Of a stretch of 64,000 nt of DNA, positions 9,391-64,000 are shown one piece after another. The stretch's first letter is position 1; every line of letters begins with the position of its first letter. Below the pieces are notes generated by a model that saw nothing but the letters and a program-made list of their open reading frames with translations, had not been told where the DNA came from and did no database searches. A program made the position numbers and the translations under genes. The stretch covers positions 1 to 64,000 of the forward strand of contig CAXMWX010000006.1 of NCBI GenBank assembly GCA_963422205.2. Direction: 5' to 3'. This stretch comes from Gammaproteobacteria bacterium. Lineage in GTDB: Bacteria > Pseudomonadota > Gammaproteobacteria > Eutrophobiales > Eutrophobiaceae.

Positions 9391-9506
9391 CTGGCCGTCC
9401 CCTTGTGTGGTTTTGCCTATATGCACATACAAAGGGGCTTTGCATTATGCTGCCAGCGTATTATACTGCCAGCCGTCTGAGGAGCGTTGCAACGGGGCCA
9501 TCCCGC
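9391..9506 (+). repeat. Direct repeat copy 2 (native ahcY upstream region)
   Basis: Matches 7313-7442; contains TTGCAT..TATACT promoter-like hexamers. Confidence 0.95.
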
Positions 9507-9560
9507 TAGGCTCAGGCTGTTATCATCAACCCGTCATCATGAACCATAAACGGCGCTCGC
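9472..9560 (+). ncRNA. SAH riboswitch
   Basis: CTGAGGAGCGTTGCAAC...CTAGGCTCAGG...AAACGGCGCTC directly upstream of ahcY; CTGAG/CTCAG stem and GAGCGTTG/CGGCGCTC pseudoknot pairing. Confidence 0.9.
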
Positions 9561-9582
9561 TTACATTGTTTAGGAGAACGAT

Positions 9583-55718: not shown

Positions 55719-55794
55719 GGCCAGGTAGCTCAGTCGGTAGAGCAGGGGACTGAAAATCCCTGTGTCGGCAGTTCGATTCTGTCCCTGGCCACCA
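55719..55794 (+). tRNA. tRNA-Phe(GAA)
   Basis: GGCCAGG acceptor, AGCTCAGTCGGTAGAGC D-arm, CTGAAAA anticodon loop, TTCGA T-loop, CCA end; 76 nt. Confidence 0.97.
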
Positions 55795-56075: not shown

Positions 56076-56740
56076 ATGAAAGGCAATATTAGTCAGTGGA
56101 ATGATGCTAAAGGTTTCGGTTTTATCACGGTTCCAGAGAAGAATGATCGACTTTTCTTTCATATCTCATCTGTCAAAACCAGGAGTAGAAGACCTGAAAT
56201 TGGTGATAGTGTTGAGTTTGAAATTGGAGAAGACAGAAATGGAAAACTCAGAGCAACTTCAGTTGTCATATCAGGTTTAACACAAAGTCATGCTCGCTCT
56301 TCCAAGCGAATCATCGTTGATCCACCGAAGATGGATTTTCTCGATTTTACTCTTCCAATTATTATTATCTCCTCATCAGCATTTACAGCTTATCAGTATT
56401 ACCTAAACCAGGGCGTCGAAAAATATGGTTTTATGCTATACCGGCTGTTATTGCTTTCCTGGTTTCTGGTCGCACAAAAAAGCCAAAGCAACAATACTTC
56501 TCATGTGCTAAGTGTAAGTCAGTAGAGAGGTTCGCTCCCAGAACGATCAAAGCCTGGAATAGAAAAATGACAAGACTGTACTGCAACATTTGTCATCAAG
56601 AGTGGATTAGAAATAACCCAAGAGAAGAAGTGCAGCACTTCCCCCGAAAAGAAGACTCAAGTGGCTGTCTTGGTTCTTTTCTTATCATTCTAACTGTGCC
56701 AATAGTTGCAGTCGCAGCAATTATTCAGTTACTTACGTAA
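56076..56740 (+). pseudogene. Cold-shock-domain membrane protein with CxxC pair (integron cassette gene), frameshift at an A-run ~56420
   Basis: WNDAKGFGFI...FFHISS CSD; adding one A continues as EKIWFYAIP...CAKC...CNIC...TM to TAA at 56738. Confidence 0.75.
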
Positions 56741-56847: not shown

Positions 56848-56906
56848 ATGAATAAAGCATATACCGCAATCATTAAAGAAGATAAGGGCTGGTGGATCGG
56901 CTGGAT
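56848..56906 (+). pseudogene. HicB-like antitoxin N-terminus truncated by an insertion
   Basis: MNKAYTAIIKEDKGWWIGW, then abrupt switch to the repeated element end. Confidence 0.65.
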
Positions 56907-57152
56907 GTGTGGGTGGTGTTCATTTTGAGACAAAAATGTGCATTTTATGATCACAATTACCCGAAAAATGATCATTTTGAGGGCGGTTAATAGCCATTTA
57001 CGGCTGCTTTGAAGCGGGTTTGATGCTACACTTACGGCGTGCCGCGTGAGGCTGAAAAATCGTCGGGTCAGCGGGTGATCCTATCCTGGCAATAGCGACA
57101 CCCATGCGGGGGTGCCAGGCATTATGACCTGGATGGCGTCCTGCCATGCGGC
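56906..57152 (+). repeat. Copy 1 of a repeated block: TG-terminated element end with TCATTTTGAG motifs plus structured RNA
   Basis: Aligns with 63596-63988. Confidence 0.9.
57039..57152 (+). ncRNA. Candidate structured ncRNA, copy 1
   Basis: TGcTACACT extended -10 immediately upstream; GCCGCGTG/CATGCGGC closing stem; internal stems shared with copy 2. Confidence 0.55.
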
Positions 57153-57157
57153 CATTC

Positions 57158-57445
57158 TTATAGTTCCCCGTCCACCAATTCGTATCTTTTCTTGTCCCGC
57201 AGAGTAATGGTCGGCACCATGCCACCAGTACGGACGCTGTTAATGAGTTTACTCCTTTCCCGGTAGTTCACTCGAACTACGAACTTGCCCAGACGCTCCT
57301 CTTCACCTGGGGATGGCTCCTCACCCGCATCAAAGACATACAGCAGTGCCGGATCGACTTTATCGAACAGCACGGCCTGCGGCTGTTCAATGTGTCTGGA
57401 CAGGTTCAGGAGTTCAGTTCTGGGGATGGCTGCGCCCCGCCTGCG
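57158..57445 (-). pseudogene. C-terminal fragment resembling phage MuF-associated BECR-type nuclease domains
   Basis: RGAAIPRTELLNLSRHIEQPQAVLFDKVDPALLYVFD...KFVVRVN...INSVRTG; family recalled from the motif, not searched. Confidence 0.45.
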
Positions 57446-57572
57446 GCAAGGCCATCAATGCCATGCTCATCCATGAGCAGGGCGATATTCTCAAGGTACT
57501 ACAAGCCATCCGCAGGGAGGGCGTACCGAAACGCCTGCAACCCTTCAGCGACATACTGCATTCCACCGCCTG

Positions 57573-57800
57573 ATGCCCGCATCCATCCGCCTGTCACTGA
57601 TTGCCGTGCTGTTATCTCTCGCCACCCACTCATCCCTCGCCCATCAGACCTGTTGCAACTTAACCGAGCCGGTCACCTGGTATCAACTGCCCGATGGGGC
57701 GGTGATTGTCATCGATGCGTGCCAGAAGGTGTTCCCACCCAGGACGGCGACCTCCAAGCCACCGCAACATGCCGCCGAGTTCGCTGAACACCGCCACCGC
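57573..57800 (+). pseudogene. Zot/pI-like (inovirus morphogenesis ATPase) fragment
   Basis: WYQLPDGAVIVIDACQKVFPPR...KPPQH.AEF.EHRHR matches the Zot Walker B/HRH region (E to A). Confidence 0.65.
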
Positions 57801-58473
57801 ATTAAGAGCTATCGAAGAGAAAGGCAAAGAGAACTGCCGCTTTCTCTTTGCCGATACTGGCAATGAACACGAGTTGACCTACCAATATCTCTATGACTAC
57901 CTGCAACCGAGACTGAACATCCGCATCGAGACCGTCAAGGCTGACTTTACCCAACGTATCGCCGACAAGCGCACCTTTATCCAGACCCACTGGGCGGCGG
58001 AAGGTTGGGTCATCCGCCATCCCATCGTCAACTGGTCAGCTGCCGAGGTCATCAATTACATTACAAAGACGCATCAACTGCAACTTAACCCCCTCTATCG
58101 CCAGGGCATGCACCGGGTCGGTTGTATGCCCTGCATCAACTGCCGCAAGGATGACATGCATCAGATGGCCACCCGCTACCCTGAACACATCGACAAAATC
58201 AGACAATGGGAGCATCTGGTATGCTTGGTCAATAAGCGCAGGGTGAGTTCATTTTTCTCGGACAAGGCAAAAAGAAGCACCACACCACAACCAGGCTATC
58301 ATTATGATAAGGATAGCGGTCACTATGTCGAATCCGCCGAAGCCGTCTATGAGCGCATCAAGATCGATGAGCGGGTCAAATGGGCGGCCACCGGACGAGG
58401 GGGACACACTTATGACTTGTTCAAGCAACATCCCCCGCCCGCCTGTGTCAGTGTCTATGGGCTGTGTGAGTAG
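57790..58473 (+). pseudogene. Phage-type PAPS reductase-family protein, 5'-truncated and apparently internally deleted
   Basis: TATAL...FADTGNEH, NPLY.QG..RVGCMPCINC, C.SVYGLCE; SGGKDS loop absent. Confidence 0.75.
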
Positions 58474-58572
58474 AGGGAGATCAACCTCATCGCCAGACTG
58501 CTTTGACCAACCGAGCTGGCAGCGACAGTACGGTCATTGTCAGTCAGGCCAAGCCTCGCTATACTGTCAGCC

Positions 58573-58866
58573 ATGAGTGCTGTTGCCTTTGATACCTTGA
58601 AGTTTGCCCGCCGACTGGAACAGGCCGGCTTGGATTCCAGCCAGGCAGCCACGTTTGCAGAAGCACAGAAAGATGCCTTTGCCGAGGTGCTGGATAACCA
58701 GGTGGCCACCAAGGCAGATGTACGGGAGTTAAGGGCAGAATCGAAAGCGGATATTCACGAGCTAAGAGCCGAGCAACGCCTGATGAAGTGGATGTTAAGT
58801 TTCAATCTCATACTGTCTTTTGCCATTCTCTCGATGGTGGCCTCTATCTTGTTGAAGGGGGGATAA
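58573..58866 (+). CDS. DUF1640/CCDC90-like protein
   Basis: FDTLKF, ATKAD, TM tail; TTGTCA-17-TATACT ends 7 nt before the ATG. Confidence 0.85.
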   Translation: MSAVAFDTLKFARRLEQAGLDSSQAATFAEAQKDAFAEVLDNQVATKADVRELRAESKADIHELRAEQRLMKWMLSFNLILSFAILSMVASILLKGG

Positions 58867-60058: not shown

Positions 60059-60346
60059 ATGAGTACCGTTACCTTTGATACCCTAAAGTTTGCCCAACGA
60101 TTGGAACAGGCCGGACTGGAGCCCAGGCAGGCCGCCGCTTTTGCTGAAGCACAGAAGGATGCCCTCGCAGAAGCACTGGATGATCAGGTTGCTACAAAGG
60201 CAGATATTCATCGTCTGGAACATCGTCTGGAACATCGTCTGGAACGCATTTATGATGAGCTAAAGGGAGAGCAGCGTTTAATAAAATGGATGCTCGGCTT
60301 GATCATTCTGGTGGAGATTATCCCCTTACTCAAATCCGTGCTTTAG
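60059..60346 (+). CDS. DUF1640/CCDC90-like protein
   Basis: FDTLKF, ATKAD, 12-bp tandem repeat (HRLE x3), TM tail. Confidence 0.85.
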   Translation: MSTVTFDTLKFAQRLEQAGLEPRQAAAFAEAQKDALAEALDDQVATKADIHRLEHRLEHRLERIYDELKGEQRLIKWMLGLIILVEIIPLLKSVL

Positions 60347-60362: not shown

Positions 60363-61159
60363 TGGCATGATGCTGGTGGCACAGATAGACAGCATACAGG
60401 ATGACAGGCAGGGCAACATCCAGGATGGCACAGCAGACACCGAGCACCTCCTGTATCTGTACACCGACCACCTGATGACCAACTGGCTGGCAACAGACCA
60501 GAGCCGGAATGTTATCTGGCGCTGGGAGGGGGGCGGCCTTTGGTAATACCCCCGCCGATGAGATGGGGGGCTTTGCCATTAACCTGCGCTTCCCGGGGCA
60601 ATACTATGATGCGGAGACGGGCTGGCACTATAACTGGAACCGGTATTATGACCCAGCACTGGGGCGGTATATCACTTCGGATCCGATTGGGCTTAGTGGG
60701 GGGATGAATACTTATGGGTATGCGAATGCGAATCCGATTATTTATACCGACCCAACAGGATTAGTCTGTGGAACAGGCACCTGTGTTCTGGTAGCAGCTG
60801 GTACGGTTGGTCTGGTTACAGGTCTTGCCCAGGGCATTAGTAGTGAAGCTACTGGTGATGGTTTCGGTAAAGGTTTTGCCCTTGGATTTGGCTATGGGAT
60901 AGGTGCTACGACAACGGCTATCGCTGGTGGAGGTAGTGCGCTTGCAACAGGTCTGGGAATTGCGGTTGGCTTAGGGCTTGATTTGTTATTTACAGGTGGC
61001 GCGGCGACAGATTTGATTACCCCAGATGCCGATGCTGCAACACGCACCCCTGCGGATTTGGGTAGTCCCGATCCTGCGGATGATGCTATTTACCAGATGT
61101 TTTGCCAACAAAATCCCGATGCACCCAATTGCCAAGCGGAACCAAATGATTGTCTATAG
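60363..61159 (+). pseudogene. Orphan Rhs core fragment + Gly-rich hydrophobic C-terminal domain 1
   Basis: [46 protein letters not shown]...NP...DPTGL; frameshift in a G-run ~60530. Confidence 0.85.
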
Positions 61160-61184
61160 GGCGTTTGCTGTTCCAGTTCGAATA

Positions 61185-61487
61185 ATGATAAAGAAGCTAC
61201 TGAAATTTTTCTTTGGGGAAAGCTGGATTAGTCACAGGGTTATTTGTGCTGTTAATATATGTTGTGGGGTATCTTCCTTGTACTACTTTACATATATCCA
61301 TCAATATTCTTTGCCATCAGACCCCCCTTTTGCAGTCCTTGTTTTACCCCTGCTTGCAGGAAATTTCATGGCTGTTTACATCATTGAGCATCATGAAAAC
61401 AAATTGCAACTTATTGTCGGTTACATAATGTTGTATTCCTTTCTAATAGTTCCCATGGTTGACCCTTTAATTTTATGGTTGAAATAA
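61185..61487 (+). CDS. Putative membrane immunity protein 1
   Basis: 100 aa, ~3 TMs, low GC, follows Rhs-CT; paralog of 62446. Confidence 0.7.
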   Translation: MIKKLLKFFFGESWISHRVICAVNICCGVSSLYYFTYIHQYSLPSDPPFAVLVLPLLAGNFMAVYIIEHHENKLQLIVGYIMLYSFLIVPMVDPLILWLK

Positions 61488-61544
61488 GTCGGGGCAATAG
61501 CTATTACTGGGGCTACTGCCGGGGCGAGGGCTGAGGTCACCACC

Positions 61545-62445
61545 ATGACCTATGCCACCCTGCGGCTTATCTCCCGCCTCATCCCCACGGGCAGTCCGGC
61601 CCCGGCACTGCCACCCGACCGGGAGTTGGTCTATAACAATGCGGGGCGGCTGTATCAGGTGTTTGAGAATGGGGTACTGAAGGCCGGGTATGTGTATAAC
61701 GCAGCGGGACAGCGTACCCGTAAGACAACCTATCAAAGTGATGGCATGACGCCGGTGGCACAGATAGACAGCATACAGGATGACAGGCAGGATAAGACCG
61801 CAGATGGCATGGCAGCCCACCGAGCACCTCCTGTATCTGCACACCGACCATTTAATGACTCCCCGGCTGGCAACTGACCAGAGCCAAAACGTTATCTGGC
61901 GCTGGGACGGGGCGGCCTTCGGCAACACCCCCGCCGATGAGATGGGGGGCTTTGCCATTAACCTGCGCTTCCCGGGGCAATACTATGATGCGGAGACGGG
62001 CTGGCACTATAACTGGCACCGGTACTATGACCTGATAGTGGGGAGGTATATCACTTCTGATCCGATAGGGCTAACAGCAGGGATGAATACCTACGTCTAT
62101 GTGAATCAGAATCCGCTTGGATCAATTGATGAGAGAGGGCTTTTATGTGGGAGCGGGGCATGTTTGCTAGGAACTACTTTCACAGTAGATGCGGTAGTAG
62201 GTATTGCACAGGGGATTGCTACAGCCAGTGCTGGCGGATCTTTTGGAGACGGATTTGCTGGAGGTTTCGCATTCGGTAGTGGTGCGACTTTAACAGGGAT
62301 TGTGGGTGCTGGTAGTGTTGTAGCTACTGGATTAGGGGTTGCTGTAGGGTTTGGTCTGGATCTATTAGTGAGCGGTGGGGGTCTTTTACCTGATGCAGAA
62401 GCAGCCATGACCAGTGCAGAAACAACGACAAATGGTTGTGACTAA
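61545..62445 (+). pseudogene. Orphan Rhs fragment + C-terminal domain 2
   Basis: YNNAGRL...YVYNAAGQRTRK, frameshift, HTDHLMTPR, core motif, DERGL then Gly-rich CT. Confidence 0.85.
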
Positions 62446-63457: not shown

Positions 63458-63595
63458 GTCGCTATTAATTTCATAGACGGTTTGTTACTGGTCAGCATAC
63501 TACTGTTCGAACTGTCTGGGGGGATAATAAAGCATTGTGACCATGTTTGCGTGTACTGTTGTAAAACAACTCAATATAATCAAAGATGTCACGCT

Positions 63596-63988
63596 TGGTG
63601 GGTGGTGGTGATCATTTTGAGACAGAGAAAAATAGAGAAAAAATCGCTGAAAGCTCGTGTGGATAAGGGTTTCGGGCAGATGGGGGTAGAATTTTAAAAA
63701 CGTTCATTTTGAGATAAAAATGTGCATTTAATGCTAATAAAATGTACAAAAAATCATCCTAAAATGTGCATTTTATGCTCACAATTACCCGAAAAGTGAT
63801 CATTTTGAGGGCGGTTAATAGCCATTTACGGCTGCTTTGAAGCGGGTTTGATGCTATACTGAAGTACCTGCTGCGTAATAGCTGGAAAATCGTCGGGCCA
63901 GCGGGGAGATCCTATCTTAGCAATAGTGACAGCCCGATGCGGGGGTGCCAGGCATTGTGACCTGGGTGGCGTCCCGCTACGCGGCAGG
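63596..63988 (+). repeat. Copy 2 (longer) of the element end + structured RNA block
   Basis: Three TCATTTTGAG motifs; aligns with 56906-57152. Confidence 0.9.
63866..63988 (+). ncRNA. Candidate structured ncRNA, copy 2
   Basis: TGcTATACT at 63852-63860; 11-bp closing stem CCTGCTGCGTA/TACGCGGCAGG. Confidence 0.6.
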
Positions 63989-64000
63989 CATCTATAAACC

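Follow-up and report, generated by a model that had tools for sequence, protein, structure and literature searches.

What kind of element recurs twice near the end of a 64,000-nucleotide stretch of a Gammaproteobacteria genome (assembly GCA_963422205.2, contig CAXMWX010000006.1), and why does each copy end within a few nucleotides of the stop codon of a phage head gene, or of its remnant, on the opposite strand? The whole stretch, hereafter the window, corresponds to positions 1-64000 of contig C8 in a genome of 2.99 Mb and 14 contigs (G000). The head gene, F, encodes MuF, known as gp30 in Mu and gp7 in SPP1; the protein is widespread among phage heads and leaves the particle together with the DNA. 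The comparisons reported here demonstrate the fold and the strand of structured RNAs that Mu-like transposable phages encode and that appear to form an undescribed family, as well as a conserved convergent position of these RNAs at the end of F genes of the MuF-C type, that is, those ending in the domain MuF-C. A first-pass annotation of the window had reported, in both copies, an extended -10 element and a closing stem enclosing 112-122 nt; these can be read directly in the sequence, together with the following features (ORF, open reading frame; aa, amino acids).

57024-57032, + strand: extended -10 of RNA copy 1, TGcTACACT (other copies keep the -10 at an equal distance)
57041-57152, + strand: core of RNA copy 1, 112 nt (covariance-model match 57033-57160, 139 bits)
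57041-57048/57145-57152, + strand: copy 1 P1, GCCGCGUG pairing with CAUGCGGC
57051-57055/57068-57072, + strand: copy 1 P2, with a 12-nt loop
57073-57103, + strand: copy 1 P3
57106-57144, + strand: copy 1 P4
57061-57064 with 57135-57138, + strand: copy 1 pseudoknot, CGUC with GGCG
57158-57160, - strand: stop codon of the ORF next to copy 1, 5 nt past P1
57158-57445, - strand: MuF remnant, the final 95 codons, holding the MuF-C domain only, without a start and without the N-terminal part
63852-63860, + strand: extended -10 of RNA copy 2, TGcTATACT
63867-63988, + strand: core of RNA copy 2, with an 11-bp P1 (covariance-model match 63862-63993, 128 bits)
63867-63877/63978-63988, + strand: copy 2 P1, CCUGCUGCGUA pairing with UACGCGGCAGG
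63992-64000, - strand: 3' end of a full MuF gene of 433 aa, which as a whole occupies contig C8 63992-65293, past the window

The two copies share 84% column identity across promoter and RNA, and the 100 bp that precede them are nearly identical. The first-pass annotation had described copy 1 as convergent on a putative nuclease gene, a minus-strand ORF whose stop codon is 5 nt away; the convergence and the distance stand, and the ORF is indeed a MuF C-terminus, but it is a dead remnant of 95 codons, 63-67% identical to the full MuF gene by translation and alignment. A similar gene had been envisaged just past position 64000, where the 433-aa MuF gene is found, with its stop codon 3 nt beyond copy 2. 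A third copy in the same genome (G000:C14:31221-31352), the truncation of the ORF at copy 1 and the Mu-like prophage ends around both copies were added by the present analysis.

The RNA, with a family size of ~105-125 nt, has three arms enclosed by a closing stem, and a pseudoknot joins the loop of arm 2 to the internal or terminal loop of arm 4. Both window copies take the fold outlined in the first-pass annotation. Since neither copy folds with unusual energy when taken singly (z = -0.03 for copy 1 and -1.07 for copy 2), the evidence for structure is comparative. Further copies came from G007 (n = 6), G020 (n = 1), a Lysobacteraceae metagenome-assembled genome (L021) and a metagenome contig with two tandem units (L034). 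In a set of 12 copies, 95.9% of 415 cells were in standard pairs, pseudoknot included, and 16 of the 35 pairs were altered on both sides, values matched by none of 500 shuffles, while slid controls paired in 32-49% of cells. When viral copies were added, to a total of 18, 94.0% of 533 cells paired and 22/31 pairs were altered on both sides (0/500 shuffles); the figures for both sets lean towards structure, because the alignments were fitted to the model and the sequences are related. The closing stem is entirely substituted in L034 (AAUCCCUG/CGGGGGUU), a short UUCG hairpin stands in for arm 3 in L017, and the pseudoknot covaries as CGCC/GGCG, CGUC/GGCG and CGCA/UGCG, with CGCU/AGCG in L073 and L064. 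Two further features were noted: in L073, L070 and L087 the junction between stem and loop of arm 4 holds GGAGGUG or GGAAGGUGG, which resembles a Shine-Dalgarno sequence, and some distant members have a 7-nt CCUGGCA loop in common on arm 3.

The G.U cells (n = 40) far exceed the A.C cells (n = 3), and pairing amounts to 95.9% on the + strand vs 87.0% on the - strand; this excess identifies the + strand as that of the RNA, in agreement with the orientation and the structured RNA proposed in the first-pass annotation. The same numbers bear on an explanation at the level of DNA, in which the element would be a transposase or packaging site of the prophage end, or a set of chance inverted repeats. 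In this genome the element does lie 130-280 bp from the prophage terminus, beside repeated motifs, but in most phages it is found mid-genome, between F and G or I, which rules it out as a feature of the prophage end as such. Together with the strand asymmetry, the compensatory changes in 22/31 pairs and the UUCG tetraloop arm of L017, this makes the DNA-level explanation extremely improbable.

We infer transcription from promoter-like elements. A TANNNT hexamer stands shortly before P1 in 23 of the 29 loci inspected, and full promoters are present in L073 (TTGACT-17-GATAAT), L034 (TTTACA-17-TATTCT) and L075 (TTGGCA-17-TATAGT), so that each RNA is apparently transcribed from its own sigma-70-type promoter, as had been proposed from the two window copies. 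A two-hexamer promoter scan made no call at either of these, both of which have an extended -10 only, without a -35, and a terminator scan called none at the RNA in the window. At one locus (L081) a U-run directly follows P1.

The RNA had not been recognised as a named family, and the searches agree. At gathering thresholds, Rfam 15 returned only a tRNA and a SAH riboswitch in the whole window, both away from the RNA; at E ≤ 10 the top match in 56900-57250 was the L31 leader, with 14 bits against a gathering score of 33.2, and six viral loci gave no relevant Rfam match. ARAGORN called a single tRNA in the window (tRNA-Phe, 55719-55794) and none at the RNA sites of 23 loci, and blastn of 56900-57460 against phage and E. 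coli collections gave no match. An exact-pattern scan yielded no matches in viral contigs, two in genome contigs and three in metagenome contigs; L022 and L035 proved to be the G020 sequence again, and L033 the hairpin alone. The literature searched, main texts outside subscription journals, described no RNA at this position. A lambda-type late-promoter leader, the P2/P4 late-promoter dyad, a retron, a bridge or omega RNA, and c-di-GMP or guanidine riboswitches were set aside, none being compatible with gene context or Rfam. In Curvibacter phage TJ1 an RNA similar by eye was seen, with a TACACT -10, a CUGGAAACGC...CCAG arm and a hairpin plus U-run terminator; the covariance model did not score this site at E ≤ 1 or 10, and TJ1 was therefore left out of the RNA counts.

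The link between RNA and MuF-C was approached from the protein and from the RNA. From the protein side, 14 IMG/VR loci encoding a MuF-C 34-40% identical to that of the window were collected with a 13-row alignment and searched with two covariance models (R2, narrow; R3, broad, trained on the five R2-positive loci and 13 other sequences). The RNA was detected in 5/14 loci by R2 and in 11/14 by R3, always on the strand opposite to F, and six of the 11 R3-positive loci were outside the training set. The edge of the R3 match lay ≤10 nt from the end of the ORF in 10 of the 11. In L066 a DUF4238 gene (1970-2884, - strand) lies between RNA and F, on the strand of the RNA and as if using its promoter. 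At the viral loci F is mid-genome; the next gene past the RNA is G in L072 and the gene I protease in L070, and in compact phages the RNA takes up the entire F-G spacer. Among the other MuF loci of the family, 16 with different C-termini plus the solo MuF-C of L049, the RNA was found in 0/17, with the first covariance model (R1) and again with R3 at E ≤ 1. These comparisons show that the RNA keeps its convergent position where F genes of the MuF-C type end, and the proposed linkage to a nuclease-like domain extends to distant phages.

The three viral MuF-C loci without the main RNA carry a different, tRNA-like RNA on the - strand, in the same slot and orientation:

L071:1903-2005, - strand: tRNA-like RNA
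L074:1843-1945, - strand: tRNA-like RNA, with its own TGcTATCCT promoter
L077:1737-1835, - strand: tRNA-like RNA

Its cloverleaf includes an acceptor-like stem of 7 bp, and the T-arm is canonical (GGUUCGAAUCC or GGUUCAAUUCC); neither ARAGORN nor Rfam called a tRNA at these three sites.

An alternative is a role in cis, in which the RNA would regulate the late operon, whose last gene is F, as an antisense or as a bidirectional terminator. The RNA or its read-through would pair with the late mRNA at its 3' end, or collide with late transcription, so that late genes, lysis included, would be kept down in the lysogen. The conserved convergent orientation, the gap of ≤10 nt to the F stop and the filling of the whole F-G spacer in compact phages agree with this, and read-through into F is plausible because most members have no intrinsic terminator. 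In B. subtilis, type I systems of prophages (txpA/RatA, for example) use convergent RNAs that overlap at the 3' end. A perfect antisense needs no conserved fold, however, whereas the stems covary and the loops and pseudoknot are conserved; stand-alone chromosomal copies have no such target, and a terminator or U-run stands right behind the RNA in TJ1 and L081. We consider a cis-antisense role unlikely.

From the RNA side, 15 of 23 copies abut a MuF-C, either full or a remnant, distributed as follows.

G000: 3 RNA copies, 3 with convergent MuF-C
G007: 6 RNA copies, 6 with convergent MuF-C (two intact, four broken or stubs)
G247: 1 RNA copy, 1 with convergent MuF-C
Class sample, 5 positive genomes of 150: 6 RNA copies, 2 with convergent MuF-C
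Phylum sample, 2 positive genomes of 150: 3 RNA copies, 3 with MuF-C (two tandem units of RNA plus stub, and one full gene ~200 nt off)
G020, G150 and two on L034: 4 RNA copies, 0 with convergent MuF-C

The RNA is present in 3/126 family genomes, 2/151 of the Lysobacteraceae-family genomes, 6/151 of the class and 3/151 of the phylum, the last two counts including G000. Decayed prophages that retain the RNA with a short MuF-C stub are represented by window copy 1, L015, L017 and two tandem units in L087.

The 433-aa product next to copy 2 contains Phage_Mu_F (Pfam PF04233) at residues 87-191, with 64.6 bits vs a cut-off of 29.6. For its last 133 residues a homology search at E ≤ 0.001 gave 228 representatives, in most of which the match is C-terminal in a protein of 400-450 aa, and among 70 homologues scanned there were 35 matches to Phage_Mu_F, 26 to MuF_C, 9 to PBECR3 and 1 to PBECR2 (MuF_C counted at E ≤ 0.01, best 7.5e-7; best PBECR3 9.6e-9; Pfam PF18819, PF18812). 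The window protein itself scored 12-15 bits (E 0.026-0.19) against MuF_C/PBECR, under the Pfam cut-off of 27.6. Identity of MuF-C among close copies is 58-72%. An AlphaFold model of the domain (pLDDT 96.8) consists of helices followed by five strands, and an exhaustive structural scan with VIA-align was headed by BrnT (Z 5.7), a Salmonella toxin-antitoxin toxin (Z 5.0) and the colicin D tRNase (Z 4.9), with RelE, HigB and YoeB at Z 4.5-4.9 and ParE and CdiA-CT also among the matches.

According to the passages of Iyer et al. 2017 (PMC5512222) that deal with this domain, Mu gp30 ends in a PBECR domain, named MuF-C, which is predicted to be RNA binding or an RNase; the copy of Mu is held to be inactive and 'probably' RNA-binding, and its orthologues are expected to be RNases. 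The BECR fold is described there as a sheet of four or five strands preceded by an N-terminal helix. From the homologue matches and the model, the C-terminal domain at our loci appears to belong to the MuF-C/PBECR group and has a BECR fold; it is predicted to act as an RNase or RNA binder. The BECR-type domain proposed in the first-pass annotation is supported by the homologues and, weakly, by the resemblance of the model to BECR-fold RNase toxins. Residues R41, K44, D72, Y80, K92 and N107 hardly vary, a pattern compatible with the Arg-type family of Iyer et al. 2017.

The reading we favour, to which we give a probability of roughly 40%, is that the RNA is the cognate ligand of the MuF C-terminal domain, as a decoy, a pseudo-substrate or an inhibitor. 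The role of RNA antitoxin, decoy substrate or cofactor put forward in the first-pass annotation is likewise a proposal. The RNA would be made from its own promoter, convergent to head gene F and ending within ~10 nt of the F stop, and as a pseudo-substrate it would occupy or inhibit MuF-C, which would amount to RNA immunity; a less likely variant is that the RNA is cargo carried into the capsid by MuF. Stand-alone and tandem chromosomal copies would then be orphan immunity RNAs. A partnership of this kind would explain why the RNA goes with this domain in particular, why a tRNA-like RNA can take over its slot, why decayed prophages still retain it and why orphan copies exist. A fuller version appears doubtful to us: it takes the RNA as an immunity or decoy element against a virion-delivered, tRNase-like MuF-C, shielding the RNAs of the phage or of the lysogen, with the orphan copies as a bacterial defence that disarms an effector injected by Mu-like phages and the tRNA-like RNA as a second, independent solution.

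Several observations weigh against the ligand reading. Eight of the 23 RNA copies have no adjacent MuF-C (six in five genomes, two on a 2.4-kb metagenome contig), and a search of G020, G150, G361, G308 and G055 found no MuF-C anywhere, the same search being positive in 5/5 control genomes; these RNA-bearing genomes without MuF-C speak against an obligate partnership. Conversely, the stand-alone MuF-C gene of L049 has no RNA, nor does E. coli Mu, where F overlaps G, or JBD67, both with a MuF-C, and Ralstonia phage YO088_1 has a MuF-C homologue with no adjacent RNA. Window copy 1 faces a dead MuF fragment, so that there is nothing to neutralise in cis. On the protein side, Foldseek of the MuF-C model against the PDB returned nothing at E ≤ 0.001, the structural Z-scores are modest (≤5.7), even if the list of matches is coherent, and the conserved R/K/D/Y/K/N residues show no split between loci with and without the RNA. 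A partner role also leaves the conserved convergent orientation unexplained, and the synteny could come from common descent of the head-gene module rather than from function.

The surroundings of the orphan copies are diverse. The one in G020 (L018:8330-10830) adjoins a FitA-like/PIN toxin-antitoxin pair, with a CRISPR array ~800 nt away and a Cas4-Cas1 fusion upstream; in L081, P1 and the U-run are followed 66 nt on by an HD-GYP gene on the same strand; and in L082 the RNA lies between a GGDEF-EAL gene and a ParA gene. Tandem units ~250-310 bp apart, each with its own promoter, occur at L034:1639-2058, L084:1-352 and L087:1501-1884, a short MuF-C stub being retained in each unit of L087.

Copies in genomes without MuF-C and the tandem arrays of L034 and L084 are also what might be expected of a small RNA that acts in trans and independently of F, as a moron among the prophage cargo, and is expressed in the lysogen against host or other-phage targets, its site after F being a permissive operon boundary inherited with the head module. 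Its own promoter, the operon-boundary sites (F-RNA-gene I in L070, F-RNA-gene G in L072) and the DUF4238 gene inserted downstream in L066, in the same orientation and as if on the RNA promoter, point the same way. The link is specific to MuF-C-type F genes, though (11/14 loci vs 0/17), the gap to the stop codon stays ≤10 nt even in highly divergent phages, the tRNA-like RNA takes the same slot in three loci, and no long conserved single-stranded seed is evident apart from the pseudoknot loop. An autonomous small RNA is thus a conceivable, if somewhat unlikely, alternative.

The genes downstream in L066 and L081 raise a further alternative, a riboswitch-like sensor that would govern read-through into a downstream antisense F, DUF4238 or HD-GYP gene. 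The architecture of junction and pseudoknot, the conserved unpaired bases, the succession of P1, U-run and HD-GYP gene in L081 and the downstream DUF4238 gene in L066 are compatible with such a sensor, but most copies have no downstream gene on the same strand, those that exist are mutually unrelated, no conserved expression platform was seen and Rfam gave no riboswitch match. We regard this alternative as very improbable.

The gene content around the third copy indicates a Mu-like transposable prophage context. On contig C14 the RNA comes after the last gene of an intact prophage that encodes a Mu transposase (Mu-transpos_C, rve, DDE_2), an AAA ATPase with a helix-turn-helix, an S24 repressor, Gam, GemA, an M15 lysin, DUF1804, a large ORF in the terminase position, Portal_Mu and Phage_Mu_F; the head and tail genes form the other arm, in the opposite direction. 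Past the RNA, ~260 bp of repeated CATTTTGAG-type motifs are followed by host genes, and the host genes beside RNA copies vary from locus to locus. The same layout, with F at the extreme end of the genome, is found in the isolated Curvibacter phage TJ1. The arm of head and tail genes is inverted in the C14 prophage relative to E. coli Mu, which makes F the last gene at one end. Between the head genes and the repressor (C14:11855-16394) lies cargo that includes a TIR-domain protein and a trypsin-like protein, and the S24-peptidase repressor is 526 aa long.

The prophage that holds window copy 2 derives from that of C14 by rearrangement; the two are 95% identical over 63592-65847, with more pieces up to the contig end, and homology breaks at 63592, equivalent to C14 31622. 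Window copy 1 belongs to a stub, and its C14 match is limited to 56933-57416 (end repeats, RNA and the last 95 codons of F). The end segment of remnant 1 aligns with copy 2 and with the G007 copies, and its motif cluster at 56921-56973 is confined, within the genome, to the three RNA loci. The repeats and the palindrome listed below are putative transposase or regulator sites. The other features of the window recorded in the course of the analysis are included.

9473-9565, + strand: SAH riboswitch, Rfam RF01057, 58 bits
55719-55794, + strand: tRNA-Phe (GAA), ~1.1 kb upstream of prophage remnant 1
56076-56525: cold-shock-domain gene, between tRNA-Phe and prophage remnant 1
56909-57023, unstranded: end segment of Mu-like prophage remnant 1, with repeated CATTTT(G/A)(A/T)G motifs and a AAAATGATCATTTT palindrome
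57706-58473: broken PAPS-reductase gene
58537-58866 and 60059-60346: two CCDC90-like coiled-coil ORFs, between the RNA copies
60509-62445: Rhs C-terminal fragments (RHS repeat), each trailed by small ORFs, between the RNA copies; it looks like an orphan Rhs toxin-immunity array
63592-63851, unstranded: end segment of Mu-like prophage remnant 2, ~130 bp longer than that of copy 1; it shares the repeats of remnant 1 (cluster 63613-63801)

The finding adds a well-supported new fold to the few RNAs of this kind known in temperate phages, and suggests an unrecognised RNA-protein partnership in Mu-like phages. As a conserved structured RNA ≤10 nt from MuF-C, it is a concrete candidate ligand, which makes the predicted RNA role of the domain directly testable. 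If the RNA does neutralise or guide a virion-borne RNase, it would represent a new form of RNA-protein conflict module, and the orphans in bacterial chromosomes would count as anti-phage elements of a new kind.

Among known systems, type III toxin-antitoxin systems (ToxIN, CptIN, AvcID), whose toxin is often an endoRNase and which are phage-related, resemble the arrangement that we propose in that the RNA would neutralise a protein by direct binding. They differ in the RNA, which here is one complex unit of ~112 nt with four helices and there a series of tandem short repeats; in its orientation, convergent here and upstream of the toxin on the same strand there; and in the partner, a domain of a virion head protein here and a free toxin there. 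With type I systems such as txpA/RatA and bsrG/SR4 our loci share a convergent small RNA gene with its own promoter at the 3' end of a prophage gene, but the neighbour is a 433-aa structural protein instead of a small hydrophobic or membrane peptide, and the fold of the RNA is conserved by covariation. The antisense RNA of type I systems overlaps the toxin mRNA. The phi29 pRNA is likewise a phage-encoded structured RNA, of ~120-170 nt, linked to the head/portal machinery; it has no likeness in sequence or fold to our RNA and belongs to another phage group, and a packaging role would be pure conjecture.

The four-way, cloverleaf-like junction and the loop-loop tertiary pairing recall tRNAs and the tRNA-like decoys of phages, as does the T-arm-bearing RNA that three related phages have in this slot. 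Some BECR enzymes, colicin D for one, cleave tRNAs (PDB entry 5znm, by its title). The main RNA class, in contrast, has no CCA end and no canonical D or T loops, and its arm 3 is variable. MuF polymorphic toxins share the combination of an N-terminal MuF and a C-terminal effector, and in those systems the neutralising factor is encoded just downstream; a MuF-RelA_SpoT toxin with its immunity is an example given in a section of a meeting report (PMC11806420), and fusions of PBECR to MuF appear in the corresponding part of Iyer et al. 2017 (PMC5512222). Immunity in those systems is a protein, whereas at our loci an RNA gene is in that place with no protein gene after F, and MuF-C is conserved rather than polymorphic. 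The RNA thus appears nearest in kind to type III RNA antitoxins and to MuF toxin-immunity pairs, from which it differs in the form of the RNA, its orientation and its partner.

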